DNA from: a bacterium
GTDB taxonomy: Bacteria; Patescibacteriota; CPR2; UBA1875; JAJYID01
Direction of reading: 5' to 3'
NCBI GenBank assembly: GCA_021787535.1
Contig: JAJYLR010000001.1
Span: 83,648-147,647, forward strand
DNA: 64,000 nt
Shown piece after piece: positions 31,801 through 62,783 of the stretch. A program made the translations under genes and the position numbers. Positions within the stretch are counted from its first letter, which is position 1, and each line of letters begins with the position of its first letter. The notes beneath the pieces were generated by a model. The model was not told the origin of the DNA. It saw only the letters and a program-made list of their open reading frames with translations, and searched no databases.

Positions 31801-32731
31801 TGCAGTGGGTATTGATCTGCAAAGCGGAGGAAATGCCTATATAGATAATGCAGTGATCAGTTTAGGACAGAATTCGCATGGCATTAATGTTGGTAGCTCA
31901 GGGTCGGCGTTTACCGGCAGTATGATTTCTGCCAGGATTGTAGGATATACCGGAAGCAGCCCGACCGGAACCATGATCAATTGGGCTAATGCCGGAGATG
32001 CCAACAACAACTTAACAGCCACAGTTTCGACACATACGGGAGAAACCGCTCTTGCAGGCAGTCCCGCAGCAAGTAATGAAATTAATATTTTATCAACAGG
32101 GACTGGGACAAATGCGAATTACAAAAACTTCTCAAGCGCCAATAACGTTGGGGTTGGGGTAATTAATTCTCAAAACAAGCTTAGCGTTAATGCTCCTGTT
32201 ACGGCTGACACGCTGGCAACCACGATAATTACGCCAACTGTGGCTTCGAACAAAGGTTTAGTAGTGCAAGGTTATACTTCGCAAACTGCTGACTTGATCC
32301 AGGCGCAAAGTTCACTAGGAGCCGTGTTATTTAAGATTGACAACTCGGGTAACTTGGCGGCTAAAAGCGCAACCTTCACCGGCACATTGACTATGAACGG
32401 TCATATTATTACCGGAAACTCAATCGGTTCGACGACGATTGCCGCCGGAGCTAATGCAGGAACGGGAGCCACGGCAACAATCAGTGGAAACGACACTTCG
32501 GGGACTATCACAGTGACGACTGGAACCGGCCCGGCTGCGGGAACTTTGGCAACTATTACATTTGCCGGTACCTATGGCTCGGCACCAAGAGTGGTTTTGA
32601 CACCAACCGGCGCAAATGGCGCAACTCTGCAATATTATGTCGGATCCACAACCACAACATTTACCTTATCTAGCGGTACGGCACCGACGGCTTCAACCGC
32701 CTACACCTACAATTATCAGGTAATGCAGTAG
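28862..32731 (+). CDS. Giant surface protein paralog (1289 aa) with the same N-terminal anchor, a shared conserved ~300-aa N-domain, a pectate-lyase-type beta-helix and a shared C-terminal domain
   Basis: VRAYGAKGDGKTDNTAAIQAAEDSLPDQGGTLYFPSGTF. The N- and C-terminal regions align with the upstream gene. The genes are in tandem with a 77-bp spacer. Confidence 0.8.
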   Translation: MYNPTKSTLIKIFSLISILILCGFLLVYELTIHEVNQKYKNQQSSQGNISLSTSDLSKDYVSLKGSNPQSGNINLEGNISGNDVQGQTITSTVQNGTSPLNVTSSTLVNNLNADMVDGKHADELTKTTVNNITNTTTGESIQPGTTGQYYRGDKSWQTLNSSAVGLGNVENTALSTWTGSNQVAILGTVTSGTWNAGAINAAGSITGTALQGTSLNLGSGAITSGAINGQTISSSANFTGTITAGGTINGATISGGTLSGGNVSGGTVQGGTLSSTAVNGVTTANILVNTGSYSDPSWLQGLAGSKITGDIQGNASGLTGSPNITVGTITSGNITSSGTLDITGTGDSTVGGNISVNPDFGSELTTNGNFNGSANNWLVSCTDYSSGSTACNTADTPNSVPASGWSYGSNSVSHASGTNNTDALYQDISNTAGETYGSNIITDSNFSLNPATNGWDWMDAGWHWVNNTAMTNAGGAYFGDDLGTSLTAGLYKVQFSTSGMPAGGQLKVALSSGGISEDAAVVSGNGQHTFYFTVGTTPETGGWPYYLYFDSTSVGTTIDNVSAQLVTGAQFGESQTQSYKVSFAVSGMTAGSLSANLGGVGGSPITANGTYTQYLIGKPNANIISFVPSHDAVFTLSNISVTPVQNGTITVQDIITKGGPKVDVRAYGAKGDGKTDNTAAIQAAEDSLPDQGGTLYFPSGTFLGHVTLKSNVHVEGAGINATILKLPNGANTDVIASKDFASLTGNTTNRDGVNRVTLDDITIDGNAGNNTAGYGVRKYGGQWNVHDVVIKNCAQDGVYSEWGSYGGAPLVADSMEDHWTNIMLTVNSGSGMTWNGPHDSVLDNFIVSSNSGNGINFENASGGVANGTQLKNSHIWGNSSTGYGLWIKTSINLDNDIVEGATGTGGIGIYVDSGGAILANGLQVYACETGVYISGVSPGGNNEITGITLSTITKANIVIYSAWSVRITGATISISSNSSSAVGIDLQSGGNAYIDNAVISLGQNSHGINVGSSGSAFTGSMISARIVGYTGSSPTGTMINWANAGDANNNLTATVSTHTGETALAGSPAASNEINILSTGTGTNANYKNFSSANNVGVGVINSQNKLSVNAPVTADTLATTIITPTVASNKGLVVQGYTSQTADLIQAQSSLGAVLFKIDNSGNLAAKSATFTGTLTMNGHIITGNSIGSTTIAAGANAGTGATATISGNDTSGTITVTTGTGPAAGTLATITFAGTYGSAPRVVLTPTGANGATLQYYVGSTTTTFTLSSGTAPTASTAYTYNYQVMQ

Positions 32732-37678: not shown

Positions 37679-37800
37679 AGAAAAGAGTAAAATAAGAATG
37701 ACTAATTACCAATATCTAATAACCAATCAATTCTAAAATTTAAAAATTAATTAATTGAAAATTGACTGGAAATTGGGACTTGAAAATTAGAAATTAAGGT

Positions 37801-41246: not shown

Positions 41247-42547
41247 AGATAAAAAATATAAAAGCAAATGAAATACTGGATTCACGGGGCAATCCCACCG
41301 TTTCTACCGAGATAGAGTTGGAAAACGGCATAATTTCTCATGCATCGGTTCCCAGCGGGGCGTCGACCGGTATTCATGAGGCGCATGAGCTGCGTGACGG
41401 CGACATGAAACGTTTTGACGGCAAAGGAGTCTTAAAGGCCTGTCAAAACATTGAGCAGATTATACAGCCGGAAATTAAAAAAATTGACATTGAAAATCAG
41501 GCGGAAATCGATAGTAAAATGTGCGAGCTGGACGGCACAAAAAACAAGGAAAAACTCGGAGCAAATGCTATTTTAGCGGTTTCGATCGCGGCTCTTAGGG
41601 CTCATGCCGCACATAACGGTAAAGAGCTGTATGAGATTATCGGCGAGCTTTACGGATTTCATGATTTTCGCCTTCCCAAGCCCTTGTCGGTTATTCTAGA
41701 AGGCGGCAAACATTCGGATTCTAATTGTGAAATCCAAGAATTCATGATTCAAATCGAGGAAGAGAAAATCGAGGAAAATTTACGGAAGATTGAACTTGTT
41801 TACCATTCGCTTGAGCAGGTGCTTGAAAGCCAGGGTAAAAATACCAACATTGGTTATGAAGGAGCATTTGGTCCGAATTTAACCTCGAACCGGGAGGGGC
41901 TTGATCTGATTATGCAGGCGATTGAAATGTCCGGATTAAAGCCCCGATATGATGTGCGTATTGCCCTCGATATTGCTGCCAGTGAATTTTACGATACTGA
42001 GAGCAGCCAATACCTTCTAAAAAGTGAGAACATTGCTCTGCGCGGGAGCCAGATGGTGGCTTACAATGAAGAGTTAGCGAGGGATTATCCTATCCTTTCT
42101 ATCGAAGACGGCATGTACGAGGATGACTGGGAAGGATGGCAAGCGCTCTATGAGCGTCTGGGCGATAAAATCATGCTGGTTGGCGACGATCTGTTTGTGA
42201 CCAACACCGAGCGCATTAGAAATGGCATTGATCGCCATGCTGCTAACGCAGTTTTGATTAAGCCGAATCAGATTGGTACAGTGACAGAAACCATCGAAGC
42301 TGTCAAAATGACCAAATTTGCCAGTTGGGAACCGATTGTTTCGCACAGGAGCGGAGAGACGAACGATAGTTTTATCGCCGATCTGGCCGTGGCGATCAGC
42401 GCCAAGTATATTAAAGCCGGCGCGCCGGCCAGAGGCGAGAGAGTAGCGAAATATAATCGGCTGATGGAAATTTCCTCTGTCATTCCCGCCCCCGATCGGG
42501 TCGAGGGTAAAGCTTCGGCGGGAATCCAGGAAGATAATTCAAAATGA
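41243..42547 (+). CDS. eno: Enolase
   Basis: ILDSRGNPTV N-terminus, the SHRSGETND signature and IKPNQIGT. Confidence 0.95.
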   Translation: MKIKNIKANEILDSRGNPTVSTEIELENGIISHASVPSGASTGIHEAHELRDGDMKRFDGKGVLKACQNIEQIIQPEIKKIDIENQAEIDSKMCELDGTKNKEKLGANAILAVSIAALRAHAAHNGKELYEIIGELYGFHDFRLPKPLSVILEGGKHSDSNCEIQEFMIQIEEEKIEENLRKIELVYHSLEQVLESQGKNTNIGYEGAFGPNLTSNREGLDLIMQAIEMSGLKPRYDVRIALDIAASEFYDTESSQYLLKSENIALRGSQMVAYNEELARDYPILSIEDGMYEDDWEGWQALYERLGDKIMLVGDDLFVTNTERIRNGIDRHAANAVLIKPNQIGTVTETIEAVKMTKFASWEPIVSHRSGETNDSFIADLAVAISAKYIKAGAPARGERVAKYNRLMEISSVIPAPDRVEGKASAGIQEDNSK

Positions 42548-44004: not shown

Positions 44005-45276
44005 ATGCAGAAGATTCTTTTTATCATATTTGACGGGCTTGGCGATAGGCCTATCAAAAAATTTGGCGGGCTGACTCCGCTTGAAGCGGCGCATACCCCT
44101 AATATGGATCAATGGGTACACAAGGGCATTTGCGGAACGATGAATGCCATGCCAACCAATTTATATCCGACAAGCGAAGAAGCGCACCTGGCCATTTTCG
44201 GCTATGATTTTGTGAGAGATTATCCCGGACGGGGAGTTTTGGAAGCGCTTGGCATTGGCATTAAATTAAAACCGGATGAGATGGCATTTCGCATAGATTT
44301 CGGGACGGTGGATCAAAGTTTAAAGCTGATTGATCCGAGAGCGGGAGTGATTGAGTCGACTGAGAAGCTGTGCAAGGCGGTCGACGGAGTTGAGGTGGAC
44401 GGGGTAACTTTCAAGATTTATCCTTCGCTTCTATATCGGGGTGTTTTGGTTCTTTCGGGCCAGCCGGTTAAAAATTATCTGAAAAAAGTCAAGCATGCTG
44501 CAATTTCTGATACTGATCCTCACAAAAGCGGGCCTCACAAACTGGATGTTAGAGTGCTTCATCCCCAGTCATTTGGCGAGTGCCGCGAGGGTAAAACGGT
44601 GGCTAGAGCACTGGAGCGGTACCAGTATTTGACGCATGAGATTCTAGAAGAGTATAAGGTTAACAAAAAAAGAGTTAAGCAAGGCCTGCCGCCGGCAAAC
44701 TTTATCCTGGCGCGCGGTGAAGGCAGACTTAAGCCCGTCCAAAGCTTCAAAGATAGATACGGCTTGAAAGCCGCTTGCGTTGCCGGTGCCCCGCTCTACA
44801 AAGGCATTGCTTCATATTTAGGCATGGATGTCCTGCATGTTCGGGGAGCGACCGGAACGCTAGATACAAATGCCGATGCAAAAGTGAAAGCTTCTATAAA
44901 AGCGCTCAAAAAGAATGATTTTGTATTCTTGCATTTCAAAGGAACGGATATGGCAGCCGAAGAACTAGGTAGTCCAGAGCTCAAAAAGAAATTCATCGAG
45001 AAAGTTGACAAATCGTTTTCAAGACTTTCCGGGCTCAAAAATGTTATGATAGTAGTGACCGGTGATCACTCGACACCCTGTGAACTGCACGACCATTCGA
45101 CAGATCCAGTACCGCTGTTAATTAACAGCCAATTTCCAATACCTAATGCCCGATTAAATTCCCAAGGCAAAAGGTCAAATGCCAAGTTTGGAGAGAGCGA
45201 GTGCAAAGATGGCAATTTGGGACATATTTATGGGAAAGACATGATGAAAAAATTATTGGAAATGAGGGCAATGTAG
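44005..45276 (+). CDS. apgM: 2,3-bisphosphoglycerate-independent phosphoglycerate mutase, archaeal type
   Basis: The N-terminal ILFIIFDGLGDRP metal-binding motif characteristic of ApgM. The size is 423 aa. Confidence 0.8.
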   Translation: MQKILFIIFDGLGDRPIKKFGGLTPLEAAHTPNMDQWVHKGICGTMNAMPTNLYPTSEEAHLAIFGYDFVRDYPGRGVLEALGIGIKLKPDEMAFRIDFGTVDQSLKLIDPRAGVIESTEKLCKAVDGVEVDGVTFKIYPSLLYRGVLVLSGQPVKNYLKKVKHAAISDTDPHKSGPHKLDVRVLHPQSFGECREGKTVARALERYQYLTHEILEEYKVNKKRVKQGLPPANFILARGEGRLKPVQSFKDRYGLKAACVAGAPLYKGIASYLGMDVLHVRGATGTLDTNADAKVKASIKALKKNDFVFLHFKGTDMAAEELGSPELKKKFIEKVDKSFSRLSGLKNVMIVVTGDHSTPCELHDHSTDPVPLLINSQFPIPNARLNSQGKRSNAKFGESECKDGNLGHIYGKDMMKKLLEMRAM

Positions 45277-46345: not shown

Positions 46346-47166
46346 CATTATCAAAAATACCTACACGCGTCAGAAAAAAAAGAGAGATAAATACAGGCAA
46401 GAAAAAAATTCTCTTCGTTTTGGGTATTATTTTTGCTCTTATAGTACTTTTCGGCATTTACAATTTGAAGAAAAAAGTCCTTCCCGACAATAAGAGTAAA
46501 ATTCCTATTAAAATTCAGTCAACCGATCAGCCGATGGCGGCGCAAAAGAGCGTCATAGTCAATACCGGCGGCGGAGCTTTAAATATCCGAGCCGATCATA
46601 GCGCAACGGCGAAAAAGATAGGAGAGATACCCAACAAAACTAAGGTTGAGGTTAAGGCAGAAACTGACGGTTGGTATCAGATTTCTTATAACGGCAAACA
46701 AGGGTGGATTTCCAAGCAATATACTGTTTCGGCTAACGCGGATTCATCTGGTCAAGCTTCGACAAGCGGCCAGACCTTTCAAGGCAGCGGCTATACTTTT
46801 CAATATTCCAAGGATTGGAATTTACAAAATTATCCTACAACTGACTCCACGACTTGGGTGGCTCTTTCAAACAATCAGTTGCCGGCCGATCCTCCTCAAG
46901 GGTCGTACTTTTTTCCGATTACGCTTAAGGTTTACCCGGATAATATCAAACCAACTGGCGGCTTTAGAACTGATCCAGCTACTCAAAGTGCGCCAATCTT
47001 AGTTGGCGGTGCGAACGGAACCCGCTATACTTATACAAGTCAAGATACTTCAACTCAGGTGAATACTGTTGAATTTGAAAAAAACGGCATGCTTTATGAT
47101 TTTACGGATAATGGCGGATACTGGGATGATTTGAATAAGATTTTAGGAACGTTTATATTCAATTAA
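46342..47166 (+). CDS. Membrane-anchored SH3b-domain protein
   Basis: A TM helix, then GGGALNIRADHSATAKKIGEIPNKTKVEVKAETDGWYQISYNGKQGWISKQY, a typical bacterial SH3b domain. Confidence 0.55.
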   Translation: MTLSKIPTRVRKKREINTGKKKILFVLGIIFALIVLFGIYNLKKKVLPDNKSKIPIKIQSTDQPMAAQKSVIVNTGGGALNIRADHSATAKKIGEIPNKTKVEVKAETDGWYQISYNGKQGWISKQYTVSANADSSGQASTSGQTFQGSGYTFQYSKDWNLQNYPTTDSTTWVALSNNQLPADPPQGSYFFPITLKVYPDNIKPTGGFRTDPATQSAPILVGGANGTRYTYTSQDTSTQVNTVEFEKNGMLYDFTDNGGYWDDLNKILGTFIFN

Positions 47167-47231
47167 GATAAAAAACCAATGACCTATACCCAATAACTAA
47201 TCAAATCCTAATTTAAAAATTTTAAAATTCA

Positions 47232-49571
47232 TTGATTGAAAATTCAAAAATCGGAGGGGCTTTGCTAGATCGTTTCTTCAATCCAAAGAGTGTAGCTGTT
47301 ATCGGGGCTTCTCATCATAAAGAGAAGCTTGGGTTTTTGGTTTATGACAATATCAGAAAATACGGTTATAAAGGAAAACTTTATGGAGTGAATATCAAGG
47401 GCGGTTCCGCACATATTTCGCGTAAAAAATCAGGAGCGCAAAATATGTGCGGAATTCCACTCTACAAAACTGTAGGCGATATCCCTGGGCCGATAGATTT
47501 AGCTGTTGTGGTGATACCTGCGAAAGCTGTACCTCAAATAGTTAAAGATTGCGGTAAAAAAGGAATAACTTCTGTCATTATTATCTCGGCCGGGTTTTCT
47601 GAAACTGGAGCAGAAGGCAAAAAGTTAGAGGAAAAAATTGCCGATTTGTCACATAAATACGGTATCAGAATCTTGGGGCCGAACTGTCTCGGCATCATCG
47701 ACTCTTGGAGCAAAATGAACGCCTCTTTTGCCGAAAGTATGCCGGACAAGATGAAGATTTCTCTTCTTTCCCAGTCAGGAGCCATCTGCACGGCTATTTT
47801 AGACTGGGCCAATAGCGAAGAAATCGGTTTCTCCAGATTTATTTCTTTGGGCAATAAGCTTGATATCGATGAAAATGATGTCTTGGCTTATCTAGCCCGT
47901 GACACAAAAACCAAAGTTGTCCTGGCATATCTCGAAAGCATTGCCGATGGCCAGAAATTTATGGATAATGCTAGAAATCTTGCCTTGAAAAAGCCATTTA
48001 TCATGGTGAAGTCAGGCCGAACCAGCGAAGGCGCCAAAAGCATCTCTTCTCATACGGGCAGTATTGCCGGGTCGGATATTGTTATCGATACCGCTCTTCG
48101 CCAGAGCGGAGTGATACGGGCTGAGAGCTTAGAGGACCTCTTTGATCTGGCAAAAATATTTGCCTTTTCACCGGAAATGAAAGGCAAGAACGTTGCTGTT
48201 ATTTCAAATGCCGGCGGTCCGGCAGTTATGCTTGCCGATACGATTGGTCAAAGCCGCTTAAAGCTGGCTAAGTTTGAGCCAAAAACCCGTAAAATTCTAG
48301 AAGAGACATTGCCTCCTGAAGCTGCGACTCATAATCCTGTAGACGTCATCGGTGATGCCAGAGCCGATCGTTATGAAACTGCTACTTGCGAGGTTTTAAA
48401 AGATGAAAATGTTGATGCGGCCATAGTTGTTTTAACACCCCAAGTTATGACAGAGATTGAAGCGACAGCTAAAGTCATTAACAAGGCAAAAAAGTACGGA
48501 AAACCTTTGGCGGTATCTTTTATTGGCGGAGAAAAAGTCGGAGATGGCAGGAAAATTCTCGAAGACTTTGAAATACCTTCATATGAGTTTCCGGAGAGAG
48601 CGATCAAAGCGCTAGAAGCACTATTTGAGTACTATGAATTTAAGAGACACTATGGTCTTTGTCATTCCGACTGCCACCACGTGAGTTGCAAGCGGAGGAA
48701 TCCCTTAAAGAATAGCCAATTTCCAATAACCAATGACCAATCAAGCTCTAATAATCAGATGTCAAACAAAGGTGGTCATTCTGGGGACGGCAGGACCCCG
48801 GAATCTAATACAGATAAGGATTCTGGACAGGTCAGAATGACGAACAACAGGCAAAAGGTATCTGAAATTATCGGACCGGTATTTAACCGGCGCCAAAAGC
48901 TTATCACAGACGGAAGTTCGAGCGCTTTTGATGTTTTTGACGCCTATGGTATCAGCACTATCAAAAGAGCATATGGTCTGGGACTAAAGGATTTGAAAAA
49001 GAAATCGGAAGAACTGGGGTTTCCGCTTGTTGCGAAGACTTGCGCCGAAGGCGTTTTGCACAAAACGGATATTGGCGGAGTCAAGTTGGGTATGAGAGAT
49101 GAAAGCGAACTGCAAAAAGCGTATTTTTCAATTTGTAATAAAGTGCGAAAAGCTGGTTTCGAGGAGGGTTCGGATCGGGTTGACATTTATAAACAAGAAG
49201 AGGACGGCGTCCAAATATTTCTGGGCGCAAAAAAGGATTCCAGTTTTGGACCGCTCATAATTTTTGGTTTAGGCGGAATATTCGTCGAGGCGCTTAAAGA
49301 TTTTTCATATAGAATCGCGCCGGTTACGCATACCGAGGCCAAGAGAATGATCGGCGAAATAAGATCGCAGAAAGTTCTAAACGGTTTTCGGGGCATGCCG
49401 GAAGTTGATCGGGACAAAGTGGCAGATGCAATCGTTGGTTTGTCCCAGCTTATGCTCGACTTCCCGGAAATCAAAGAAGTAGATATTAATCCCTTAATGG
49501 CAACGGATAAAAAATGCGTTGCCATAGACGGAAAAATAATTTTGGACTTAGAAGTAGACCATGGTTTCTAA
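47232..49571 (+). CDS. Acetyl-CoA synthetase (ADP-forming), fused alpha/beta type. The real start is probably the TTG at 47265, which has a GGAGG RBS.
   Basis: The CoA-binding N-terminus FFNPKSVAVIGAS, succinyl-CoA-synthetase-like flavodoxin domains and a C-terminal ATP-grasp. A ~60-aa repeat-element insertion sits in the inter-domain linker. Confidence 0.85.
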   Translation: MIENSKIGGALLDRFFNPKSVAVIGASHHKEKLGFLVYDNIRKYGYKGKLYGVNIKGGSAHISRKKSGAQNMCGIPLYKTVGDIPGPIDLAVVVIPAKAVPQIVKDCGKKGITSVIIISAGFSETGAEGKKLEEKIADLSHKYGIRILGPNCLGIIDSWSKMNASFAESMPDKMKISLLSQSGAICTAILDWANSEEIGFSRFISLGNKLDIDENDVLAYLARDTKTKVVLAYLESIADGQKFMDNARNLALKKPFIMVKSGRTSEGAKSISSHTGSIAGSDIVIDTALRQSGVIRAESLEDLFDLAKIFAFSPEMKGKNVAVISNAGGPAVMLADTIGQSRLKLAKFEPKTRKILEETLPPEAATHNPVDVIGDARADRYETATCEVLKDENVDAAIVVLTPQVMTEIEATAKVINKAKKYGKPLAVSFIGGEKVGDGRKILEDFEIPSYEFPERAIKALEALFEYYEFKRHYGLCHSDCHHVSCKRRNPLKNSQFPITNDQSSSNNQMSNKGGHSGDGRTPESNTDKDSGQVRMTNNRQKVSEIIGPVFNRRQKLITDGSSSAFDVFDAYGISTIKRAYGLGLKDLKKKSEELGFPLVAKTCAEGVLHKTDIGGVKLGMRDESELQKAYFSICNKVRKAGFEEGSDRVDIYKQEEDGVQIFLGAKKDSSFGPLIIFGLGGIFVEALKDFSYRIAPVTHTEAKRMIGEIRSQKVLNGFRGMPEVDRDKVADAIVGLSQLMLDFPEIKEVDINPLMATDKKCVAIDGKIILDLEVDHGF
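48661..48842. repeat. Composite in-frame insertion in the acs linker: type C variant, a CCAAT-type heptamer stretch, and a full type A element (gtcattctggggacggcaggaccccggaatc-N13-gattctggacaggtcagaatgac)
   Basis: Read directly. It is translated as CHSDCHHVSCKRRNPLKNSQFPITNDQSSSNNQMSNKGGHSGDGRTPESNTDKDSGQVRMT. Confidence 0.85.
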
Positions 49572-49655
49572 AATTGATTTACAAAGCCAAGGGTGTTAAA
49601 CCAAGGGTTGACTTTGTGAATTTGAAAGCTTATTCTGTTTAAACTATCTTGAATT

Positions 49656-49955
49656 TTGACAAAGGAGGCGGCAATGGGATGTTCTTTCGAAGAGTCTTTT
49701 GAAGACTGGAGAAAGATGGAACAAGCACGCGAGAGATATGTAGTAAAGTACAGGCAAGAACAAAAAGAGCTGATGCAGTTTCCTTGCTACTGCGATGAGT
49801 CGGTTTTTGAGGGGACTGATAACTGTTCGAAAACATGCCCAGAAATTGCCGATTCGTGTAAGCGCAGGGTCGCTTTTCAGAGAAACCCGGAAGCAGCAGC
49901 AGATTTACTTGAGTCAGCGAATGATATGCGGGCATTGATAGCGCGGACATCATAA
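49656..49955 (+). CDS. Small Cys-rich hypothetical protein (99 aa)
   Basis: aaaggagg RBS. Followed by the hairpin gggacttgc-tgcatt-gcaagtccc at 49969-49992. Confidence 0.35.
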   Translation: MTKEAAMGCSFEESFEDWRKMEQARERYVVKYRQEQKELMQFPCYCDESVFEGTDNCSKTCPEIADSCKRRVAFQRNPEAAADLLESANDMRALIARTS

Positions 49956-50037
49956 TCAAAATCCAGGATGCCTGGGACTTGCTGCATTGCAAGTCCCTTC
50001 GCCTTTATGTTAAAATTATTTAGTAATTGGAGGGTGA

Positions 50038-51141
50038 GTGGCAACTCAAACTAAAACTAAAACGGTTTTAATGACCGGGAATCAAGCGGTGGTGAAAGCG
50101 GCTTTGGCTGTCGGTGCTGAGATGTTCAGCGGTTATCCGATAACGCCGACTACTGAAATTCTGACCGAATGGTCAAAAGCGGCCGAAAATAATAAAGATC
50201 TCATATTTTTGCAGACCGAGGATGAGCCGGCGGCCGGCTTTGTGATGATTGGCGGAGTTTCCATGGGCAAAAAGGCTTGGACGGCGACAGCCGGCGTCGG
50301 GCACGTTCTGATGCAGGATCCGCTCTCTATGGCAGAAGCTATGAGAATCCCGACGGTGACTTATATCGGCCAGCGCGGCGGTCCCTCAACCGGCACAGTG
50401 ATCTATTCCCAGCAAGAGCTGAATCTGGCTCGGATGGGCGGAAACGGCGAAGGCCTTCGCATCGTCTTTGCGCCTTCGAACCTGCAAGAACTCTACGATC
50501 TGACCATTAAGGCATTTAATGTAGCTTGGAAATACCGGTTTCCGACATTTATTCTATCCGACGGATATCTTGCCAAAACATATGGAGAAATTGAGCTTTG
50601 GCAGCCAAACAAATCGGAAATCGTGCCGACCGAAAGTTTCTTTTTGAATCCCAAAACAAGTCCGAACAATATCAGAAACTGCTACTCTATGGAGGTTGAG
50701 CTTTATGACCAACTGCTCAAAGACTTTGCCGATTATGCCAAAATGTCAGAGAAAGTTGAAGAAAGCGAGCTACTTGGCGACAAGAAGACAAATCTTTTAG
50801 TTTGCGCCTGGGGTGCGGTAGGAAACTCGGCTAAAACAGCGCTTAAGGCACTGGAAAAACAAAACATTTATTTTAAACTTTTCCGTCCGATTACTCTTAG
50901 GCCGTTTCCGGCAAAAGATCTGCAAAAAGCGGCGGAAGGAGTGACGGATATCCTCATTTTAGAGTCAGCAAACGGGCAGTTTGGCCGCATTGTGCGAGAA
51001 TCTTTGTATGGCACGACCGAAGCCGAAGTGCATCGCCTGTACAAACCGGCTATGGGCATCATGCCGGAAGAAATTCAAGCCAAAGTTAAGGAAGTATTTA
51101 AATTGGAGGATTCTGGACAAGCCAGAATGACGCAATCATGA
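50038..51141 (+). CDS. 2-oxoacid:ferredoxin oxidoreductase alpha subunit (pyruvate/2-ketoisovalerate type)
   Basis: LMTGNQAVVKAALAVGAEMFSGYPITPTTEI matches the PorA/KorA N-terminus. The C-terminal tail EDSGQARMTQS is encoded by a type A half-element. Confidence 0.85.
   Translation: MATQTKTKTVLMTGNQAVVKAALAVGAEMFSGYPITPTTEILTEWSKAAENNKDLIFLQTEDEPAAGFVMIGGVSMGKKAWTATAGVGHVLMQDPLSMAEAMRIPTVTYIGQRGGPSTGTVIYSQQELNLARMGGNGEGLRIVFAPSNLQELYDLTIKAFNVAWKYRFPTFILSDGYLAKTYGEIELWQPNKSEIVPTESFFLNPKTSPNNIRNCYSMEVELYDQLLKDFADYAKMSEKVEESELLGDKKTNLLVCAWGAVGNSAKTALKALEKQNIYFKLFRPITLRPFPAKDLQKAAEGVTDILILESANGQFGRIVRESLYGTTEAEVHRLYKPAMGIMPEEIQAKVKEVFKLEDSGQARMTQS
51108..51131. repeat. Type A half-element (ggattctggacaagccagaatgac) forming the 3' end of the OFOR alpha gene
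   Basis: Identical to the copy at 39403-39425. Confidence 0.85.
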
Positions 51142-51896
51142 TAAGCCCTCGATTTGCTTCGACAATTAAACCTTCTTCAAAACCATCGAACTTCTGTCCA
51201 GGATGTGGCCATTCCATAATCCTCAAGAATTTAGGGCAGATAATATCAGATCTCAAAATAGAAAAAAAGACGGTATTTCCCATAGACATCGGCTGTTCGC
51301 TTCTGGCTTGGGATTTTTTTGATGTTGATACTTTCCAGACACATCATGGCCGGACCACGGCAGCAGCAGTGGGACAGAAAAGGGCGCGTCCGGATGCTAT
51401 TATCCTCGCTTACATGGGCGACGGCGGAGGGTATGCCATCGGACTGCAAAACTTAGTTCATGCCTGCTATCGCAATGAGAATATTACGGTGATTTTGGTC
51501 AACAATACTATGTTTTCCATGACCGGAGGACAGATGGCGCCGACATCTTTGCCGCATGAGGTAACATCATCATCGCCGGACGGTGCATTTACCCAAGACA
51601 AACCCTTCTACGGTCCGGAAATGCTGGCTCGCGAAGCCCATGACGGCGCATATATCGCCAGAGCGGCCGTCTCAAATCCGGGGCAGATGAAAGCTTATAT
51701 GCAAAAAGCTATCCAAAATCAGATAGACGGCAAAGGTTTTTCATTTGTCGAAGTGCTTTCGTACTGTCCGACGAACTGGAAGACAAACGCCGAACAAACA
51801 ATTAGGTTTTTAGAAAAAATGAAAGAAACGTTTCCGGTAGGAGAGATTAAAAATCCTTCTCTGTCATCCCGAGCCCATTCGACAAGCTCAGGATAA
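51138..51896 (+). CDS. 2-oxoacid:ferredoxin oxidoreductase beta subunit (TPP-binding)
   Basis: FCPGCGH near the N-terminus, and a GDGG thiamine-diphosphate-binding motif. The start overlaps the alpha-subunit stop. The C-terminal 15 aa and the stop are encoded by a type C element. Confidence 0.85.
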   Translation: MISPRFASTIKPSSKPSNFCPGCGHSIILKNLGQIISDLKIEKKTVFPIDIGCSLLAWDFFDVDTFQTHHGRTTAAAVGQKRARPDAIILAYMGDGGGYAIGLQNLVHACYRNENITVILVNNTMFSMTGGQMAPTSLPHEVTSSSPDGAFTQDKPFYGPEMLAREAHDGAYIARAAVSNPGQMKAYMQKAIQNQIDGKGFSFVEVLSYCPTNWKTNAEQTIRFLEKMKETFPVGEIKNPSLSSRAHSTSSG

Positions 51897-51925
51897 ACTC
51901 CGCAATAGCGGAGTCGAGGGATCCC
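51863..51925. repeat. Type C variant element (gtcatcccgagcccattcgacaagctcagg...gagtcgagggatccc) spanning the 3' end of the OFOR beta gene
   Basis: It encodes the ...PSLSSRAHSTSSG tail and the TAA stop. Confidence 0.75.
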
Positions 51926-51930
51926 TTAAA

Positions 51931-52065
51931 AAGAAGTAACAAGATACAAGAGACAATGACCAAACAATACTCAAAATTCAATTTTCAAGAAGCAAACGAC
52001 GTCGGTTTGTTATTTGGTTATTGTTCCTTGTTTGTACCTTGCTTTCTTGCATCTTGTATCTTTAA
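51931..52065. repeat. MITE-like ~135-bp element (copy 2) immediately upstream of the OFOR gamma gene. Paralog of 19298-19427.
   Basis: aagaagtaacaagatacaagagacaatgaccaaacaatactcaaaattcaattttcaag ... gtttgttatttggttattgttccttgtttgtaccttgctttcttgcatcttgtatcttt. Confidence 0.7.
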
Positions 52066-52080
52066 CGACAGGAGGATGGC

Positions 52081-52677
52081 ATGAAGGACGTAAAACGAAT
52101 ACTAGTTTCAGGCGAAGGAGGACAAGGCGTTCAGACTATTGCCAAAGTTTTAGCCGAAGCAGCTTATGACTCAGGTGAGAAAGCCCTCTATGTGCCAAAC
52201 TACGGTGTGGAACAGCGCGGAGGCGTATCGCTTGGCTTTGTCCAGATTTCAAAAGAAGAGATCGGCTTTCCCAAGTTCCAAGACGCTGATATTTTGGTTA
52301 TCTTGGCTGAAAGAGCCATTGAGAGGGTGATAGAATATATCACAAAAGATACAGTAGTGATTTATGACGAAACCTTAGTATCGGAAGATAAACTGAAAGG
52401 TATTTCAAGTGAAAAGATAGCTATACAAGCGCTCAAATGCGCCGAAGAAACGATGACTGGAAGAGTGATGAACATGATTGTTCTTGGGTTTTTAGCAAAT
52501 ATGGTTGGCGGAATGAGCTTAGACAGGATGGAAAAGACCGTTCACGAACGCCTGAAGGAAAAATACGAGAGAAGCCCAGAACTGAAACATTTTAATACAA
52601 GGGCGCTGGAAATAGGAATGAGAGAAATTCCAAAAAGTTTATGGATCAAAGATGGCAAGAAGGAGGTTTCTGTATGA
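52081..52677 (+). CDS. 2-oxoacid:ferredoxin oxidoreductase gamma subunit
   Basis: ILVSGEGGQGVQTIAKVLAEAA matches the Por/Kor gamma N-terminal motif. A ggagg RBS is present. Confidence 0.8.
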   Translation: MKDVKRILVSGEGGQGVQTIAKVLAEAAYDSGEKALYVPNYGVEQRGGVSLGFVQISKEEIGFPKFQDADILVILAERAIERVIEYITKDTVVIYDETLVSEDKLKGISSEKIAIQALKCAEETMTGRVMNMIVLGFLANMVGGMSLDRMEKTVHERLKEKYERSPELKHFNTRALEIGMREIPKSLWIKDGKKEVSV

Positions 52678-52922
52678 TGCGTGATTGGAAAGGCAAAATT
52701 TATTCAGATAGCCAGAAAGCATGGACAAACTTCGCCGAACTCTGCAAGGGTTGCGGACTATGCATAGAGAAATGTCCGCAGAAATGTTTGGCATTTGATA
52801 AAACAAGGACCAACCATTACGGTACCGATACCGTAAAGTGCGATATTGGCAAATGTATCGCCTGCGACATTTGCGAAATCAACTGCCCGGATATGGCGAT
52901 AAGAGTGGATCGGAAAAGTTGA
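52641..52922 (+). CDS. 2-oxoacid:ferredoxin oxidoreductase delta subunit (2x[4Fe-4S] ferredoxin)
   Basis: CKGCGLCIEKCP and CIACDICEINCP cluster motifs. It overlaps the gamma gene. Confidence 0.8.
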   Translation: MDQRWQEGGFCMMRDWKGKIYSDSQKAWTNFAELCKGCGLCIEKCPQKCLAFDKTRTNHYGTDTVKCDIGKCIACDICEINCPDMAIRVDRKS

Positions 52923-53003
52923 CTTTCTAGCCAGTTTATCATATAATTATCAAAAGAGGAGAAACCTCTTTTTTCGCATCTTTGTCAACTTAAGGAGAAT
53001 CTG

Positions 53004-53249
53004 ATGATTTATGTGCTGCAGGTGATTTTTTTCTGGATTTTTGCAATAGCCGGCGTTGTGGGAACTGTAATCGGATTTTCGAGTGCTATGTCAGGCGCGA
53101 TTATTGGTATCGCGCGGCCAGACATAGTAGACATAGATCCCAGCGGCAAAGAGGAACGTTGGATGAAGAGAGGGATTGCCGTAATGCTGATCGGTGCTGC
53201 AGGGGCTTTCCTCGTGTCTCCTTACTGGTCAGCGTTCGGTATGCTATAA
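53004..53249 (+). CDS. Small membrane protein (81 aa)
   Basis: Two TM helices and an aaggag RBS. Confidence 0.35.
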   Translation: MIYVLQVIFFWIFAIAGVVGTVIGFSSAMSGAIIGIARPDIVDIDPSGKEERWMKRGIAVMLIGAAGAFLVSPYWSAFGML

Positions 53250-53343
53250 GATCGTTCCCCAGTTTTTCTTTTCACATGGATAGCGAGCCACCGGGTTCAT
53301 ACTGCCGCTCTGACAAGGGCGGCAGTCTTCTTTTAAAAAAGTG

Positions 53344-53371
53344 TTGACAAAAATTTTGTATATGATATAAT
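53344..53371 (+). promoter_or_regulatory. Strong sigma70 promoter with an extended -10 (TTGACA-16-TGaTATAAT)
   Basis: ttgaca at 53344-53349 and tgatataat at 53363-53371. It drives the GC-rich non-coding unit downstream. Confidence 0.6.
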
Positions 53372-53377
53372 GATTTT

Positions 53378-54098
53378 CATTGCACTTTGAGAATATTCGC
53401 GGTTTATACAGCTGTAATTGGTTTCTAGATTAGAGATCAGTTATAGCTGTATAAGCAAAAGTTTCCTCTCGGGTGCCACTGGAAAGTGGGACGAGGGGAC
53501 CCTCTGTACTCCCAGGGGGATACATGAGCAACCCGGAGATTGGGGAAGAGGTTGTTCTGAAAGGGAGCCGAATATAGCAGCCCCAACTGCGTATGTCGGG
53601 CCAGGTCCTCTGGTTACTCCATGAAAAACCTCATGTGGAGGTCAATGATAGAAGGAGGATATCCTGATCTAGTTTTACTGGTCTTCTATCGTTGCATCGT
53701 TAAAAGGAGATATGCACGGCAACCGCAATCTCGCCCCGAAGGAGGGAATAAAGCGGTACCAGTTGCAACTGGACGTGCGTGGGTTCTCTATTCAGTCAGG
53801 AGAATAGTTAATCTACGCTTTCAAAGATTCCCAAGGGCTTGGCTTTTATTGAAGTTCCCTCCGATGGCGGAAGGAGAGCGCTGCTCTCATATTTCTTGCC
53901 GCCCAGTGCGCCACATATGTTGGGGTACTGATCTGTGTGAGGGGGTCGGAGCTATTGGGGTCGCGGTTCTCCCGTCCTCCTTAAGGAGGCTTAGAACGAA
54001 CCGAAGTCGGTAGGGTGCCCAAATCCGGAGCCCTGAATACGCACCCTGCCCAACTAGTAAGGGACGCCTCCAATTGGAGGCGTCCCGATTTCTTTTTG
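53378..54098 (+). ncRNA. Candidate large structured ncRNA (~0.7 kb) of unknown class: promoter-to-terminator unit, GC-rich, no credible ORF
   Basis: ~52% GC against a ~40% background. Multiple GNRA-capped hairpins (ctggaaagtgg, gttctgaaaggg). Long-range complementarity cgggtgcc (53470s) with gcaccctg (54040s) would close the molecule. It ends in a perfect hairpin plus U-run. The overlapping ORFs are Arg/Pro/Trp-rich junk. Bacterial RNase P P4 motifs and tmRNA ends were looked for and not found. Confidence 0.3.
54061..54098 (+). terminator. Rho-independent terminator
   Basis: gggacgcctcc-aatt-ggaggcgtccc (an 11-bp perfect stem) followed by gatttcttttt. Confidence 0.8.
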
Positions 54099-54139
54099 TA
54101 TACTTACTCTCACTTCCCAAATCCGCTATAATAGAATGC

Positions 54140-56647
54140 ATGGCGGATTTTTTAGATGATTTAAATGAGATGCAGAAAGAGGCGGTCAAAACTACCGAAG
54201 GGCCCCTTCTTATTTTAGCCGGGGCCGGCAGCGGCAAGACCAAAGCCCTGACTTACCGCATCGCTTACTTAATTAGCGAAAAAAATGTCGATCCGGAGCG
54301 GATTTTGGCCGTGACTTTTACCAATAAAGCGGCCAAGGAAATGGTCTCGAGAGTTGAGAAACTACTCTCGAGAAATAACCAATTTCCAAGTCCCAATTTC
54401 CAATCAATTTTCAATGATCAAAATTCAAAAAGTCTGGATTCCCGCCTTCGCGGGAATGACAAGGAGGGAAAGGGATCCGTCGACTCCCATTCGGCTGCGC
54501 TCAGGGCAGGCTTTCGCGAAGTCGCTCAGAATGACAGAAAAGGGGAGCAAGAAGTCTGTCGAAATGACCCACGCACCGAAAATGGTGCGGGGCAAGCAAT
54601 ACAGAATACCGAATACTCAATACAGCATACTGTCACCGGCCGCAGGCCTGTCATGGGTACTTTTCACTCTGTTTGCGTCAAAATTCTACGGCGGGAGATA
54701 GGCCATCTCGGCTATAAATCGAGCTTTACCATTTATGACTCGGGCGACTCCAATAGGGCGGTAAAGATTGCCATGAAAGAACTCTCTATTGATGAGAAGA
54801 AATTCAATCCCAGAACAATACAAAATTACATCTCCTCGGCAAAAAATGAGCTGATTGGCGAGAAAGAGTACGCTGCGCTCGTCAACGGCTATATCCAGGA
54901 AATGGCTTCCAAAGTGTACTTTGAATACCAAAAAATTCTTAAAAACGCCCATGCGCTGGACTTTGACGATCTGATTATGAAGACGGTAGAAATCTTCCAA
55001 AAATTTCCAGAAATCTTGGAGAAATATCAGAAGCAATTCAAATATATTCATATAGATGAGTATCAGGACACAAACCACGCCCAGTATGTTTTTTCAAAAC
55101 TGCTGGCAGCTAAACATGAAAATATCTGTGTGGTGGGGGACGACTGGCAAAGTGTTTATGCATTTCGCGGGGCGAACTTCCAGAACATCCTAGATTTCGA
55201 GAAGGATTATCCGAATGCAAAAGTGGTCAAACTTGAGCAAAATTATAGATCAACAAAAACCATTTTGGATGCTGCCCATCATATTATCAAAAAGAATGAA
55301 AACCGAAGCGACAAAGAGCTCTGGACTGAAAACATTCTGGGTGTTCCTATCCTGACATTTGAGGCAAAAGACGAGGTAGATGAAGGAAGATTTATCATTC
55401 AGGAAATTTCGAGTTCAGCCCGCGATCTTTCTGATTTTGCTGTTTTATACCGCACAAATGCCCAGTCAAGAAGCCTTGAAGAACAGTTTCTAAAAGCCGG
55501 CATGAAGTACAGGATTTTCGGAGGAGTGAGGTTCTATGAGCGAAAGGAAATTAAAGATATTATCGCATACCTCAGGTTCATTCAGAATCCAAATGACTGG
55601 GTGGCGCTCGAGCGGATTATCAATGTTCCGTCGAGAGGAATAGGGGCAGCTAGTTTGAAAAAAATAAAGGAATTTTTTTCAAATAATTTGCAATTTCCAA
55701 TTTCCAATTTTCAATCAAATTCCAATAACCAAATTCCAAACAAAAGCCGTCATTTTGGGGACGATAGGACTCCAGAATCAAACTCGGATAAGGATTCTGG
55801 TCAAGCCAGAATGACGGAAGGTAAGGGTGACTTGGTTGGTATACTGGAAAAAGTGAAATTCAGCAATATTCTTTCCGGCAAAGCGCTAGCCGGATTTAAG
55901 TCATTTATGAAAGCCATTATTGAGCTCGAAGATCAGAAAGATAAATTGCAACTGGTGAAGTTCATCGATCAGGTTATGAAAAAAACCGGCTACTATGATT
56001 CGCTTGATGACAAAACTATCCAAGGTGAAGAAAGGCAGGAAAACCTGAAAGAGCTTTTGTCGGTAGCAGAGGAATTTGTCAAGGATAGAGAAGACTTCGG
56101 TCTTGAGGATTTTCTCGAGGAAGTGGCTCTTATTTCCGATATTGATAACTACTCGGAAGACGAGCAGTCCGTGGCGCTTATGACCTTGCATTCGGCCAAA
56201 GGGCTCGAGTTTCCCTGTGTTTTCATTGCCGGGATGGAAGAGGGGATCTTTCCGCATTCTCGTTCACAGCTTGATATCGAAGAAATGGAAGAAGAGCGCA
56301 GATTGGCATATGTCGGTATCACAAGAGCAAAAGAAAGAGCGTATCTGGTTAGCGCTCGCAGGCGTCTTCTCTATGGAAACTATCAGTCCAATCCGGCGTC
56401 GAGATTCATCTCTGATATTCCCGGTGAGCTCAAGAAAGACATTAACCGGTTTGAAACGTCATTGGACTCAAAGATTTATGAAAAGCAAATCCCGCAGTTT
56501 GCTCCCGGAGAAAAAGTTCTGCATGACAAGTTTGGCGTAGGCATAGTCCAAGACGTCAAAGGCGATGAGATGACTGTATCTTTTGAAAAGGTGGTGGGTC
56601 TCAAAGTTCTCTCTACCATTTACGCGCCGATTGAGAAGATAAGATGA
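54140..56647 (+). CDS. uvrD: ATP-dependent DNA helicase UvrD/PcrA (SF1). The ORF-track start at 54074 lies inside the upstream terminator; the ATG at 54140 is preferred.
   Basis: Motif I LLILAGAGSGKTKALTYRIAYLI, then GTFHSVC, DEYQDTN and later SF1 motifs. tataat at 54127-54132 sits 7 nt before the ATG, implying a leaderless mRNA. There are two large in-frame repeat insertions. Confidence 0.85.
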   Translation: MADFLDDLNEMQKEAVKTTEGPLLILAGAGSGKTKALTYRIAYLISEKNVDPERILAVTFTNKAAKEMVSRVEKLLSRNNQFPSPNFQSIFNDQNSKSLDSRLRGNDKEGKGSVDSHSAALRAGFREVAQNDRKGEQEVCRNDPRTENGAGQAIQNTEYSIQHTVTGRRPVMGTFHSVCVKILRREIGHLGYKSSFTIYDSGDSNRAVKIAMKELSIDEKKFNPRTIQNYISSAKNELIGEKEYAALVNGYIQEMASKVYFEYQKILKNAHALDFDDLIMKTVEIFQKFPEILEKYQKQFKYIHIDEYQDTNHAQYVFSKLLAAKHENICVVGDDWQSVYAFRGANFQNILDFEKDYPNAKVVKLEQNYRSTKTILDAAHHIIKKNENRSDKELWTENILGVPILTFEAKDEVDEGRFIIQEISSSARDLSDFAVLYRTNAQSRSLEEQFLKAGMKYRIFGGVRFYERKEIKDIIAYLRFIQNPNDWVALERIINVPSRGIGAASLKKIKEFFSNNLQFPISNFQSNSNNQIPNKSRHFGDDRTPESNSDKDSGQARMTEGKGDLVGILEKVKFSNILSGKALAGFKSFMKAIIELEDQKDKLQLVKFIDQVMKKTGYYDSLDDKTIQGEERQENLKELLSVAEEFVKDREDFGLEDFLEEVALISDIDNYSEDEQSVALMTLHSAKGLEFPCVFIAGMEEGIFPHSRSQLDIEEMEEERRLAYVGITRAKERAYLVSARRRLLYGNYQSNPASRFISDIPGELKKDINRFETSLDSKIYEKQIPQFAPGEKVLHDKFGVGIVQDVKGDEMTVSFEKVVGLKVLSTIYAPIEKIR
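54370..54655. repeat. ~285-bp composite in-frame insertion in uvrD between helicase motifs I and Ia: heptamer stretch, type B element, an inverted type C variant, and AATAC-type repeats
   Basis: Translated as a ~95-aa insert: SRNNQFPSPNFQSIFNDQNSKSLDSRLRGNDKEGKGSVDSHSAALRAGFREVAQNDRKGEQEVCRNDPRTENGAGQAIQNTEYSIQHTVTGRRPV. The type B copy at 54436-54463 matches 20736-20763. Confidence 0.85.
55684..55814. repeat. Composite in-frame insertion in uvrD: (AATTTCC)-type heptamer stretch plus a full type A element (gtcattttggggacgataggactccagaatc-N13-gattctggtcaagccagaatgac)
   Basis: Translated as NLQFPISNFQSNSNNQIPNKSRHFGDDRTPESNSDKDSGQARMT. Confidence 0.85.
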
Positions 56648-61326: not shown

Positions 61327-62778
61327 ATGTCTAAAAAGTTTTATATAGATACTTCTATTCCGTATGCAAACGGAAATCCCCACATAGGACATCCTCTGGA
61401 TCCTTTATACGGTGATGTTCTAGCAAGATATTATCGCGCTAACGGTTATGATGTTTTTTTTCTTGTCGGCTTGGACGAGAATGGCCAAAGCGTTTACAAC
61501 AAAGCCAAATGCGCGGAAGTCCCGGTTCAGGAGTTTACTGAGAATGTGCGCAAGAAATTCATAGAAATGCATGAAAAGTTAAATGATTCTTACGATGGAT
61601 TTATCAGGACTACCGATAAAAAACTGCATTGGCCGACGGCGCAGGAGATATGGAAAAGGGCTGAGAAGGCCGGTGATATTTACAAAAAAAACTATCAAGG
61701 GCTTTACTGTGTCGGTTGTGAAGAGTTCAAGCTGGAAAGAGATTTGGTTGATGGCAAATGTCCGGATCACCAAACCAAACCGGAGAAAATCGAGGAGGAA
61801 AACTATTTCTTCAAACTCTCAAATTACCAAAAATTTTTACAGGATTTGTTTGATAAAAATCCGGATTTTGTTTATCCGAAAAACAAATATAACGAAGCTT
61901 ATCAAATCATCAAAGGTGGGCTGGAAGACGTAAGTATTTCCCGGCCGAAGGAAAGGCTTCCGTGGGGTGTACCCGTGCCGGGTGATGACAGCCACGTTAT
62001 GTATGTCTGGTTTGACGCGCTGACAAATTACTTATCCGGTATTGGGTTTACCTCAGACAAAAAGAAATTCGAAAGGTATTGGCCGACTGACCTAAACATC
62101 GTTGGCAAAGACAACAACAAATGGCATTCTATTCTCTGGCCGGCAATTTTAAAGTCGGTAGGACTTCAGTTGCCTAAGAAAGTTTTTGTTCATGGGCACG
62201 TTCTTGGCAAAGGCAATGTAAAGATGAGCAAAACGATAGGCAACGTAGTCGATCCGATGGAGATGATTGATAAATATGGGGCTGATGCTTTTCGATATTT
62301 TATTCTTGCCAAAATCCCAGTGGATTCTGATGGCGCCTTTGATGAAGATCATTTCAGGGAAGTTTATAATTCAGAGCTTTCAAATAAGTTGGGTAATCTT
62401 TTACAGAGAACAATTTCAATGATTAATAAGTATAATGTAAAAATTTCTGACAAGGAGATCGACAGGTTTGGCGGAAGCATAGACGAAAAGATCGGGAATT
62501 TAGATTTTAATGGGGCTTTGCGTTCAGTTATTAGAATGGTAGAGGTGGCAAATGAAGAAATTGATAGTAAAAGACCTTGGGAATTGGCAAAATCTGGTAA
62601 AACGAGAGAGCTAAATGCATTATTAAGTGAAATCTATTGGATATTGAATTCAGTAGCCAAAAATATCTATCCTTTCATGCCCGACACCAGTAAAAAAATG
62701 AAAAAACAGCTTAAAAATTTAAAACCGGTACCTTTGTTTCCGAGGATGGAGAAAGATTCCCGATCGGGTCGGGAATGA
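61327..62778 (+). CDS. metG: Methionyl-tRNA synthetase (class I, compact form)
   Basis: The HIGH motif ANGNPHIGHPL, the KMSKS motif VKMSKTIGN, and the zinc-knuckle region CVGCEEF...CPDHQ. Confidence 0.9.
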   Translation: MSKKFYIDTSIPYANGNPHIGHPLDPLYGDVLARYYRANGYDVFFLVGLDENGQSVYNKAKCAEVPVQEFTENVRKKFIEMHEKLNDSYDGFIRTTDKKLHWPTAQEIWKRAEKAGDIYKKNYQGLYCVGCEEFKLERDLVDGKCPDHQTKPEKIEEENYFFKLSNYQKFLQDLFDKNPDFVYPKNKYNEAYQIIKGGLEDVSISRPKERLPWGVPVPGDDSHVMYVWFDALTNYLSGIGFTSDKKKFERYWPTDLNIVGKDNNKWHSILWPAILKSVGLQLPKKVFVHGHVLGKGNVKMSKTIGNVVDPMEMIDKYGADAFRYFILAKIPVDSDGAFDEDHFREVYNSELSNKLGNLLQRTISMINKYNVKISDKEIDRFGGSIDEKIGNLDFNGALRSVIRMVEVANEEIDSKRPWELAKSGKTRELNALLSEIYWILNSVAKNIYPFMPDTSKKMKKQLKNLKPVPLFPRMEKDSRSGRE

Positions 62779-62783
62779 CAAGC
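62755..62783. repeat. Type B variant element (gattcccgatcgggtcgggaatgacaag) forming the last codons and the TGA stop of metG
   Basis: The ORF ends ...EKDSRSGRE, followed by a TGA that lies inside the gggaaTGAc terminus of the element. Confidence 0.8.

Follow-up and report, generated by a model that had tools for sequence, protein, structure and literature searches.

In the 64,000-nucleotide stretch analysed here (positions 83,648 to 147,647 of contig JAJYLR010000001.1, assembly GCA_021787535.1; hereafter the window), short hairpin repeats are inserted at two junctions of the operon encoding a four-subunit 2-oxoacid:ferredoxin oxidoreductase (OFOR), and both the alpha and the beta subunit genes end in tails made of the inserted sequence. 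The tails are present in none of about 40 alpha and about 25 beta orthologues (55-90% identical), and in particular no orthologue compared has the same tail without element sequence; the tails are built of sequence that is repeated elsewhere. Taken as a whole, these observations are very probably best explained by hairpin repeats, small and non-autonomous, that have multiplied in the genome, which is Patescibacteria-like.

Insertions at the alpha/beta and beta/gamma junctions

The operon lies at 47.2-52.9 kb and consists of the gene of ADP-forming acetyl-CoA synthetase (ACD), a small open reading frame (ORF) and the four OFOR genes. According to the precomputed Pfam assignments of the homologues of the window proteins and of the syntenic loci, alpha carries POR_N and PFOR_II, beta a TPP-binding domain, gamma POR, and delta a 4Fe-4S ferredoxin, all in one operon, which identifies the host genes as an OFOR of the four-subunit type. 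The features of the locus are as follows:

47232-49571, ACD gene
50038-51141, + strand, OFOR alpha gene (367 aa; POR_N and PFOR_II; 12 codons beyond the orthologue length)
51103-51138, + strand, in-frame insertion of 36 nt (12 codons) coding LEDSGQARMTQS, directly before the retained stop; edges ambiguous by 1-3 nt
51108-51132, + strand, core of the type A hairpin, GGATTCTGGACAAGCCAGAATGACG (stem of 7 bp, loop of 5 nt), read as DSGQARMT
51138-51141, + strand, retained ATGA overlap (beta start ATG and alpha stop TGA), the ancestral translational-coupling junction
51138-51896, + strand, OFOR beta gene (252 aa; TPP_enzyme_C; end from the insertion)
51854-52080, + strand, composite insertion of about 227 nt, splitting the ancestral beta/gamma ATGA overlap
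51855-51893, + strand, last 13 codons of beta, PSLSSRAHSTSSG, followed by the TAA stop at 51894-51896, all from the insertion
51861-51925, + strand, type C long-loop hairpin (CT)GTCATCCCGAG...TCGAGGGATCC(C), with a 62-nt core at 51863-51924 (fold z = -4.0)
51934-52063, + strand, imperfect palindrome of 130 nt, a MITE-like module (MITE, miniature inverted-repeat transposable element), with a second, 84-86% identical copy at 19298-19424 (RNA fold z = -3.1)
52070-52075, + strand, Shine-Dalgarno-like motif (AGGAGG) in the 3' edge of the insertion, with the gamma ATG (52081) 5 nt further on
52081-52677, + strand, OFOR gamma gene (POR; 184 nt now separate it from beta)

The state without elements is visible in two syntenic, element-free relatives (GCA_021823605.1, referred to as L003, and GCA_030647205.1, referred to as L005/L010), whose operons are seamless, with an ATGA stop/start overlap at alpha/beta and at beta/gamma. 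Since these relatives have bare overlaps, the window carries insertions at exactly these two junctions. The ancestral signal is still recognisable at both of them, at 51138-51141, where it remains in use as alpha stop and beta start, and at 52081-52084, where just the role of gamma start is left to it.

At the alpha/beta junction the window reads TTTAAA-TTGGAGGATTCTGGACAAGCCAGAATGACGCAATC-ATGA, and comparison of the junction DNA shows the 36-nt block to be missing from L003, from L005/L010 and from a sister genome (L001/L009, see below). Alpha relatives (55-85% identity) end in ...KE(V/I)xK and are 344-355 aa long; the window protein ends in ...KEVFK-LEDSGQARMTQS. The type A core is repeated in the window, where GGATTCTGGACAAGCCAGAATGACG has six copies at no more than three mismatches vs none expected from shuffles. 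The original prediction had derived the last eight or so codons of alpha from a type A half-element; the position of the core and its eight codons stand, while the full extension amounts to 12 codons. As the extra nucleotides sit upstream of the kept ATGA, the ancestral alpha stop is still used and the beta start is unchanged. A block of 36 nt (3n) with one hairpin entered just 5' of ATGA and lengthened the alpha frame by 12 codons, leaving its stop on the beta start. Because alpha still stops on the beta start codon, translational coupling has probably been kept at this junction, and a 3n insert preserving termination-reinitiation coupling would explain the survival of that insert. A GGAGG within the block was considered as a new ribosome-binding site of beta and rejected, being located 28 nt from the ATG and partly in the predicted outer helix.

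At the beta/gamma junction L003 and L005 read ...AAGAAATGAGAG..., spacer-free. In the window the composite block lies between ...ATTAAAAA and ATGAAGG, and beta runs into it up to the TAA at 51894-51896, so that the protein ends in ...GEIKN-PSLSSRAHSTSSG, vs ...GEIK(N/K) or short unrelated tails in beta relatives (56-90% identity), which are mostly 239 aa long. The peptides predicted across the tails would include ...EVFKLEDSGQAR and ...GEIKNPSLSSR. The type C hairpin gives beta codons L242-G252 and the TAA; the frame of beta is the sole closed frame of its + strand, four of the six frames being open overall. The element had been credited with about 15 codons and the stop of beta; it does supply tail and stop, but the tail is of 13 codons. 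The exact type C variant has a single copy in the window, but it belongs to the dispersed repeats, since near-identical copies with unrelated flanks are found in four metagenome contigs. At its 3' edge the block reads ...AACGACAGGAGGATGGC, with AGGAGG inside the insert. The composite thus parted the two genes, so that beta now reads 13 codons to the first in-frame TAA and gamma starts after the AGGAGG of the insert. The two copies of the 130-nt palindrome occupy two operon spacers, beta/gamma and GAPDH-PGK.

A trivial explanation of these junctions would be an artefact of assembly or annotation, with repeats collapsed or mis-joined in a metagenome-assembled genome. Repeats do trouble assemblers, as the Logan contig SRR13170411_261463 (3210 nt) itself breaks within repeats at both ends (48675 and 51884). 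However, this contig is 100% identical to positions 48675-51884 of the window and covers the right half of the ACD insert described below, the alpha hairpin and the junction of beta with the type C element. Because an independent assembly thus matches across the junctions, misassembly is very unlikely; moreover, the identical 367-aa alpha and 483-aa MetG proteins are recorded from several sources, and the sister genome has analogous inserts. All in all, an artefact is hardly conceivable.

The sister genome (L001/L009), whose proteins are 85-90% identical to those of the window, carries different inserts at both of the same junctions. At alpha/beta (3898-4014) a block of about 100 nt follows codon 3 of beta and contains two hairpins, GTCATTCCGGCTTGTCCAGAATC and GGATTCTCGCCTGCGCGGGAGTGAC; it ends in GGAGGGGTAAATG and brings a new Shine-Dalgarno sequence and ATG, from which beta starts as MLQPKFA instead of MISPRFA, and a 38-aa ORF is left running from the old, translationally coupled beta ATG. 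At the other junction beta ends in ...GEIKN-RDQYPISDD, derived from a CCAAT-type module. These independent inserts indicate that remodelling affects 5' as well as 3' gene ends and that the events are recent and lineage-specific. In the same syntenic stretch of 21-25 kb the window has at least 11 hairpins, the sister genome (L009) about six and L003 none, and L010 has no genuine hairpin, its one pattern match being a 64-nt coding stretch judged not to be a hairpin; these counts were made with a relaxed stem filter, as a stricter one missed real copies. The window genome and the sister genome (L002 and L133) were assembled from one run, SRR13170411, with different element content, which would permit a direct population-level comparison of the two.

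Copies within genes and at the ends of metG and the enolase gene

The proteins of 20 syntenic genes were aligned with their counterparts in L009 and L010, and these alignments, together with the sequences themselves, revealed inserts inside genes. Stop-free, element-coded inserts are present in PPDK (three sites), PGM, ACD (about 70 aa), UvrD (about 90 aa and about 45 aa) and TP-methylase (23 aa). The features that concern us here are the ACD composite and two further gene ends:

48647-48846, + strand, composite built from these modules, about 200 nt long and read in frame within ACD (about 70 aa)
61327-62778, + strand, MetG gene (483 aa; 7-aa hairpin-coded tail DSRSGRE)
62755-62779, + strand, MetG hairpin GATTCCCGATCGGGTCGGGAATGAC, whose GAA TGA gives the MetG stop at 62776-62778
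42477-42547, + strand, 3' end of the enolase gene, where VIPAPDRVEGKASAGIQEDNSK and a stop, coded by a hairpin (42479-42527) together with its flank, replace the ancestral ...ESLRKVKK and stop

As the ACD composite is read in frame, the process is not confined to gene ends. It had been proposed that elements landing at gene ends create new tails instead of breaking genes. New tails at gene ends do exist, but the second half of this statement is best taken as survivorship, given at least nine in-frame internal sites elsewhere; copies would persist only where the gene is not destroyed. Sites that overlap ORFs fall within the last 25 codons in 4 cases out of 13 vs 7% of codons (P = 0.012), an enrichment of the kind to be expected if termini best tolerate additions. 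Single hairpins are open in five of six frames, the closed one reading GAA TGA, as in the stop of MetG, and we propose that, being stop-free in so many frames, many of them persist within ORFs and are translated. As to the composite in ACD, its 188 nt are open in just one frame of six, the one in use.

The phase of the copies is strict. All nine internal sense copies in the window are in the phase that begins with DS (DSGQARMT or DSRLRGND), although not all nine are independent, because three of them share one composite module. Beyond the window, the type A 23-mer has 126 exact copies in at least 119 contigs, 98 of them outside long ORFs; the 11 sense copies located well inside ORFs are all in the DS phase and none is in the other open phase. 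Their hosts include ArgRS (twice), TrmD, an Eco57I-like methylase, FemAB, GT2, TatD and an ATP-dependent DNA ligase. Such a strong preference for the DSGQARMT frame in unrelated genes and genomes could be taken to mean that the tails are functional additions under protein-level selection, for example surface linkers or interaction peptides, and the length of the MetG tail and the position of its stop are conserved in two sister genomes. However, the same peptide occurs in functionally unrelated proteins at unrelated positions, the MetG tail diverges faster than its gene (DSRSGRE vs DYRSDQK), and the nearest relatives lack the tails. Furthermore, the AlphaFold2 model of beta, which has a confident core, gives the last 12 residues a low pLDDT of about 47-56, consistent with a floppy tail. 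We therefore regard functional additions as highly improbable. We take the tails, which are short, hydrophilic and likely to be disordered, for tolerated by-products rather than new functional domains, and presumably for neutral passengers.

Several other internal inserts were noted. PPDK contains three separate hairpin inserts (38216-38330, 39003-39027 and 39386-39430), one of which is a mosaic coding DSGQAGMT-EDSPNTQYPIPNTDRL-DSRLRGND, and another has a partial tandem duplication (DSGQ-DSGQARMT). ACD has a separate palindromic insert, TCCGCACATATTT...AAATATGTGCGGA, at 47406-47460, coding about 12 aa (SAHISRK..MCGIP) and absent from L009 and L010; its sequence family differs from that of the GTCAT...GAATCC hairpins. 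A/T-rich modules with a CCAATxx-like period of 7 nt are located at 48711-48761, 54374-54424, 55685-55735, 45118-45157, 47171-47221 and 37697-37747; they are read as QFPI(S/T/P)N... in ACD, UvrD and PGM and are found in spacers too. The adjacent paralogous genes at 23163-28784 and 28862-32731 (1873 and 1289 aa) have segments about 80% identical (repeat families D1, D2 and D7).

The metG terminus had been assigned to the same pattern as the OFOR tails. Its tail and stop are indeed hairpin-coded: the protein ends in ...LFPRMEK-DSRSGRE, the last seven codons and the TGA lying inside the hairpin, and relatives end in ...LFPR(L/M/I)EK. The route, however, was probably another one, namely the loss of a stop codon in front of a hairpin that already lay just 3' of the gene, whether by deletion or by mutation, which fused the ORF to the hairpin. 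In two relatives (L007 and L131) metG reads ...GAAAAA TGA TA GATTCTCGTTTCGGCGAGAAGAG, where the stop is followed after 2 nt by a hairpin of 6 bp, again of GATTC...GAA shape; a third (L008) retains GATTGCCGAT, and in a fourth (L130) the gene ends in GAT TAG. In the window and in its sister L006 the 5 nt TGATA are missing, and the frame continues as GAT TCC CGA... into the hairpin. In L006 the hairpin has decayed to GACTATCGATCAGATCAGAAATAA, which codes DYRSDQK, with 8 of 24 nt different and the stem lost, but the stop position is the same. As far as can be judged from these alignments, the MetG tail predates the split of the window and sister genomes and most likely arose by loss of TGATA before the pre-existing hairpin. 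An element-borne origin of the AGGAGG before the gene 3' of MetG was considered and rejected: the Shine-Dalgarno sequence AGGAGGGTAA of this downstream MFS gene is homologous across all metG loci compared and, as the relatives show, ancestral.

As a general account of the tails, stop loss has somewhat more in its favour than against it. For OFOR, however, it fails on the junctions themselves: those of the element-free relatives are spacer-free, with ATGA overlaps only, and the ancestral ATGA is still found downstream, so insertion is required at alpha/beta and beta/gamma. As to enolase, it ends in ...EISESLRKVKK in L010, in ...EISS-VIPAPDRVEGKASAGIQEDNSK in the window and in ...PISNNPSNLNAKI in L009, each followed by a stop. 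We suppose that the MetG and enolase tails share the general origin of the OFOR tails, MetG having probably acquired its tail through stop loss before an older hairpin.

The hairpins might also be kept for their own sake, the tails being a side effect: as intercistronic RNA or DNA structures they could have been recruited to adjust mRNA stability, ribosome traffic or subunit stoichiometry, in the manner of REP/BIME elements, or to mark DNA for a control of recombination of the Ssn type. The good folds of the type C hairpin (z = -4.0) and of the 130-nt palindrome (z = -3.1), the recurrence of elements at operon junctions in both sister genomes and a compensatory change from C:G to T:A in the stem of the MetG hairpin between lineages agree with this, and in Neisseria NTS repeats modulate transformation via SsnA (PMC11893778). 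On the other hand, close relatives run the same operon element-free, the MetG copy of the sister has decayed, no intrinsic-terminator-like site was found at the OFOR junctions, and element content turns over rapidly at shared sites. Such regulatory recruitment is therefore unlikely, and the tolerated insertion of mobile repeats remains the preferred reading.

Sequence family and known systems

The repeats of the window have the form (C)GTCAT(T/C)C-stem-loop-stem-G(A/G)ATCC and occur either singly or joined with other modules into mosaics. Those at 20734, 38293 and 54434 read TGTCATTCCCGCG(C/A)AGGCGGGAATC... and agree in 27 of 28 positions with the consensus of the Neisseria Transformation Sequence (NTS), CGTCATTCCCGCGMAVGCGGGAATCYRG; these three are also the only window matches to the published SRM pattern, HGTCWYN(0-2)YYVSBRHN(0-5)WNVSBRGN(0-2)RNCYNB (PMC11893778), vs 0.19 expected from shuffles. 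What types A and C have in common with NTS/SRM is limited to the hairpin shape and the CGTCAT(T/C)C...G(A/G)ATCC flanks. The elements have a clear family resemblance to the described NTS/dRS3/Ssn-related motifs, and on sequence grounds they would belong to that family rather than represent genome-specific types.

A mark of this family would be a neighbouring gene of a single-domain GIY-YIG protein (Ssn, cd10448), frequently in the order NTS-ssn-NTS. SRM hairpins flank small GIY-YIG nucleases (SsnA) and are cut by them as single-stranded DNA, across phyla (PMC11893778). In three Patescibacteria contigs (L076, L080 and L049) genes of single-domain GIY-YIG proteins (PF01541, about 80 aa) have an exact type A hairpin at a distance of 35-40 nt. 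The spread of the elements may involve a GIY-YIG enzyme of the Ssn type acting on single-stranded DNA. The labels of the contigs with the type A 23-nt hairpin (L011-L129) name many lineages of Patescibacteria, Nitrospirota/Thermodesulfovibrionia, Gammaproteobacteria, Ignavibacteriaceae, Bacteroidetes, Nitrospinota and Desantisbacteria; this identity across phyla suggests either horizontal spread or strong constraint.

Several points weigh against the picture of translated repeats of this family spread by such an enzyme. Type A (51108) and type C (51863) fall outside the strict SRM pattern, which only ATTCCCGCG-type copies fit. Neither a GIY-YIG gene nor a transposase was found in the 64-kb window when 20 small ORFs were scanned with Pfam and a tblastn probe was run, and the filled and empty sites at alpha/beta, beta/gamma, ACD, UvrD, TP-methylase and PGM revealed no target-site duplication or common target motif. 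The strict DS phase goes beyond the avoidance of stops and could result from selection on the peptide or from phase-specific insertion, the compensatory change in the MetG stem could point to selection on the hairpin as such, and the translation of the tails is a prediction from reading frames.

The closest functional parallel is provided by the palindromic RPE elements of Rickettsia (Ogata et al., 2000, Science 290:347; 2002, Genome Res 12:808). As far as the summary in PMC10969869 describes them, both kinds of element are dispersed palindromic repeats located in frame inside unrelated housekeeping genes, with a preferred frame and hydrophilic peptides, tolerated by the host protein and variable between close relatives. 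Like RPEs, the window elements are inserted in frame in unrelated genes with the frame conserved. However, the RPEs covered there are of about 100-150 bp, form Rickettsia-specific families and are mainly internal insertions, whereas the window units are hairpins of 25-65 nt from another family and phylum; in contrast to RPEs, they build mosaics and, where genes of an operon meet, take the place of stop, Shine-Dalgarno and start signals. Judged from unit size and host, they do not fall into RPE-1 to RPE-10. The window elements work like RPEs but are not members of them.

As to sequence, the likeness is to NTS/dRS3 (window TGTCATTCCCGCGCAGGCGGGAATCCAG vs consensus CGTCATTCCCGCGMAVGCGGGAATCYRG), with which the window repeats share the oriented flanks CGTCAT and GAATC, the hairpin core and the presence in many phyla (PMC11893778); adjacency to single-domain GIY-YIG genes was seen in other Patescibacteria contigs and not in the window. 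In that paper SRMs are treated as gene-flanking repeats, whereas most window copies lie inside ORFs; its main text does not contain the words 'intragenic' or 'open reading', and its two uses of 'coding' are not about translated copies. NIME of Neisseria and REP/BIME arrays of E. coli are likewise mosaics of short hairpins with other modules, which grow and turn over at the same sites; they are, however, extragenic by definition, whereas the window mosaics lie in coding sequence (about 70 aa in ACD and about 90 aa in UvrD). The Correia elements (CREE) of Neisseria and other bacterial MITEs are also small, non-autonomous and located at gene borders, where they can alter ORF ends and supply expression signals (PMC10969869). 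However, terminal inverted repeats and a target duplication of TA characterise Correia elements (PMC10969869), whereas in the window elements duplication was not detected and the sequence is unrelated. As for MITEs in general, no consistent duplication was observed, the hairpins are single stem-loops, and only the module at 51934-52063 is MITE-like. A search of Rfam at a permissive E-value gave just two chance-level hits within 47000-56000, and no Rfam family accounts for the elements. In the literature searched, no RPE-like report in CPR/Patescibacteria was found, and searches by raw strings (GGGAATGAC, RGND and similar) returned primer noise only.

Meaning for the proteins of Patescibacteria

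By analogy, the finding would represent an RPE-type phenomenon produced by a shorter repeat family (SRM/NTS hairpins) in a different phylum, with mosaics resembling NIME/BIME. It provides a before-and-after case at the DNA level, which shows how selfish hairpin repeats can get into a 4-nt stop/start overlap, the tightest point of a bacterial operon, without killing the operon: one event kept the overlap by an insertion of 3n, and the other replaced the stop and ended in a ribosome-binding-like motif before the next gene. The 'protein-coding palindromes', described as a peculiarity of Rickettsia, would thus be extended to Patescibacteria and linked to the recently defined Ssn/SRM system. For annotation this is a warning that the strings DSGQARMT, DSRLRGND, (L)SSRAHSTSSG and VIPA...AGIQ, whether at protein ends or within CPR proteins, are repeat-derived and do not indicate homology.

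A wider proposal, which we put forward tentatively and with more doubt than confidence, is that SRM/NTS-type hairpins, otherwise known as extragenic repeats linked to single-strand nucleases of the Ssn type, are a general, hitherto undescribed engine of protein-length change in Patescibacteria. If this is true, the hairpins would be translation-proof, being open in five frames of six and supplying a stop in the sixth. Their insertion or retention would favour a single phase (DSGQARMT, DSRLRGND), and where genes overlap they could exchange the signals for stop, Shine-Dalgarno and start. In that case, part of the lineage-specific insertions and tails in the housekeeping proteins of CPR bacteria would be accounted for.

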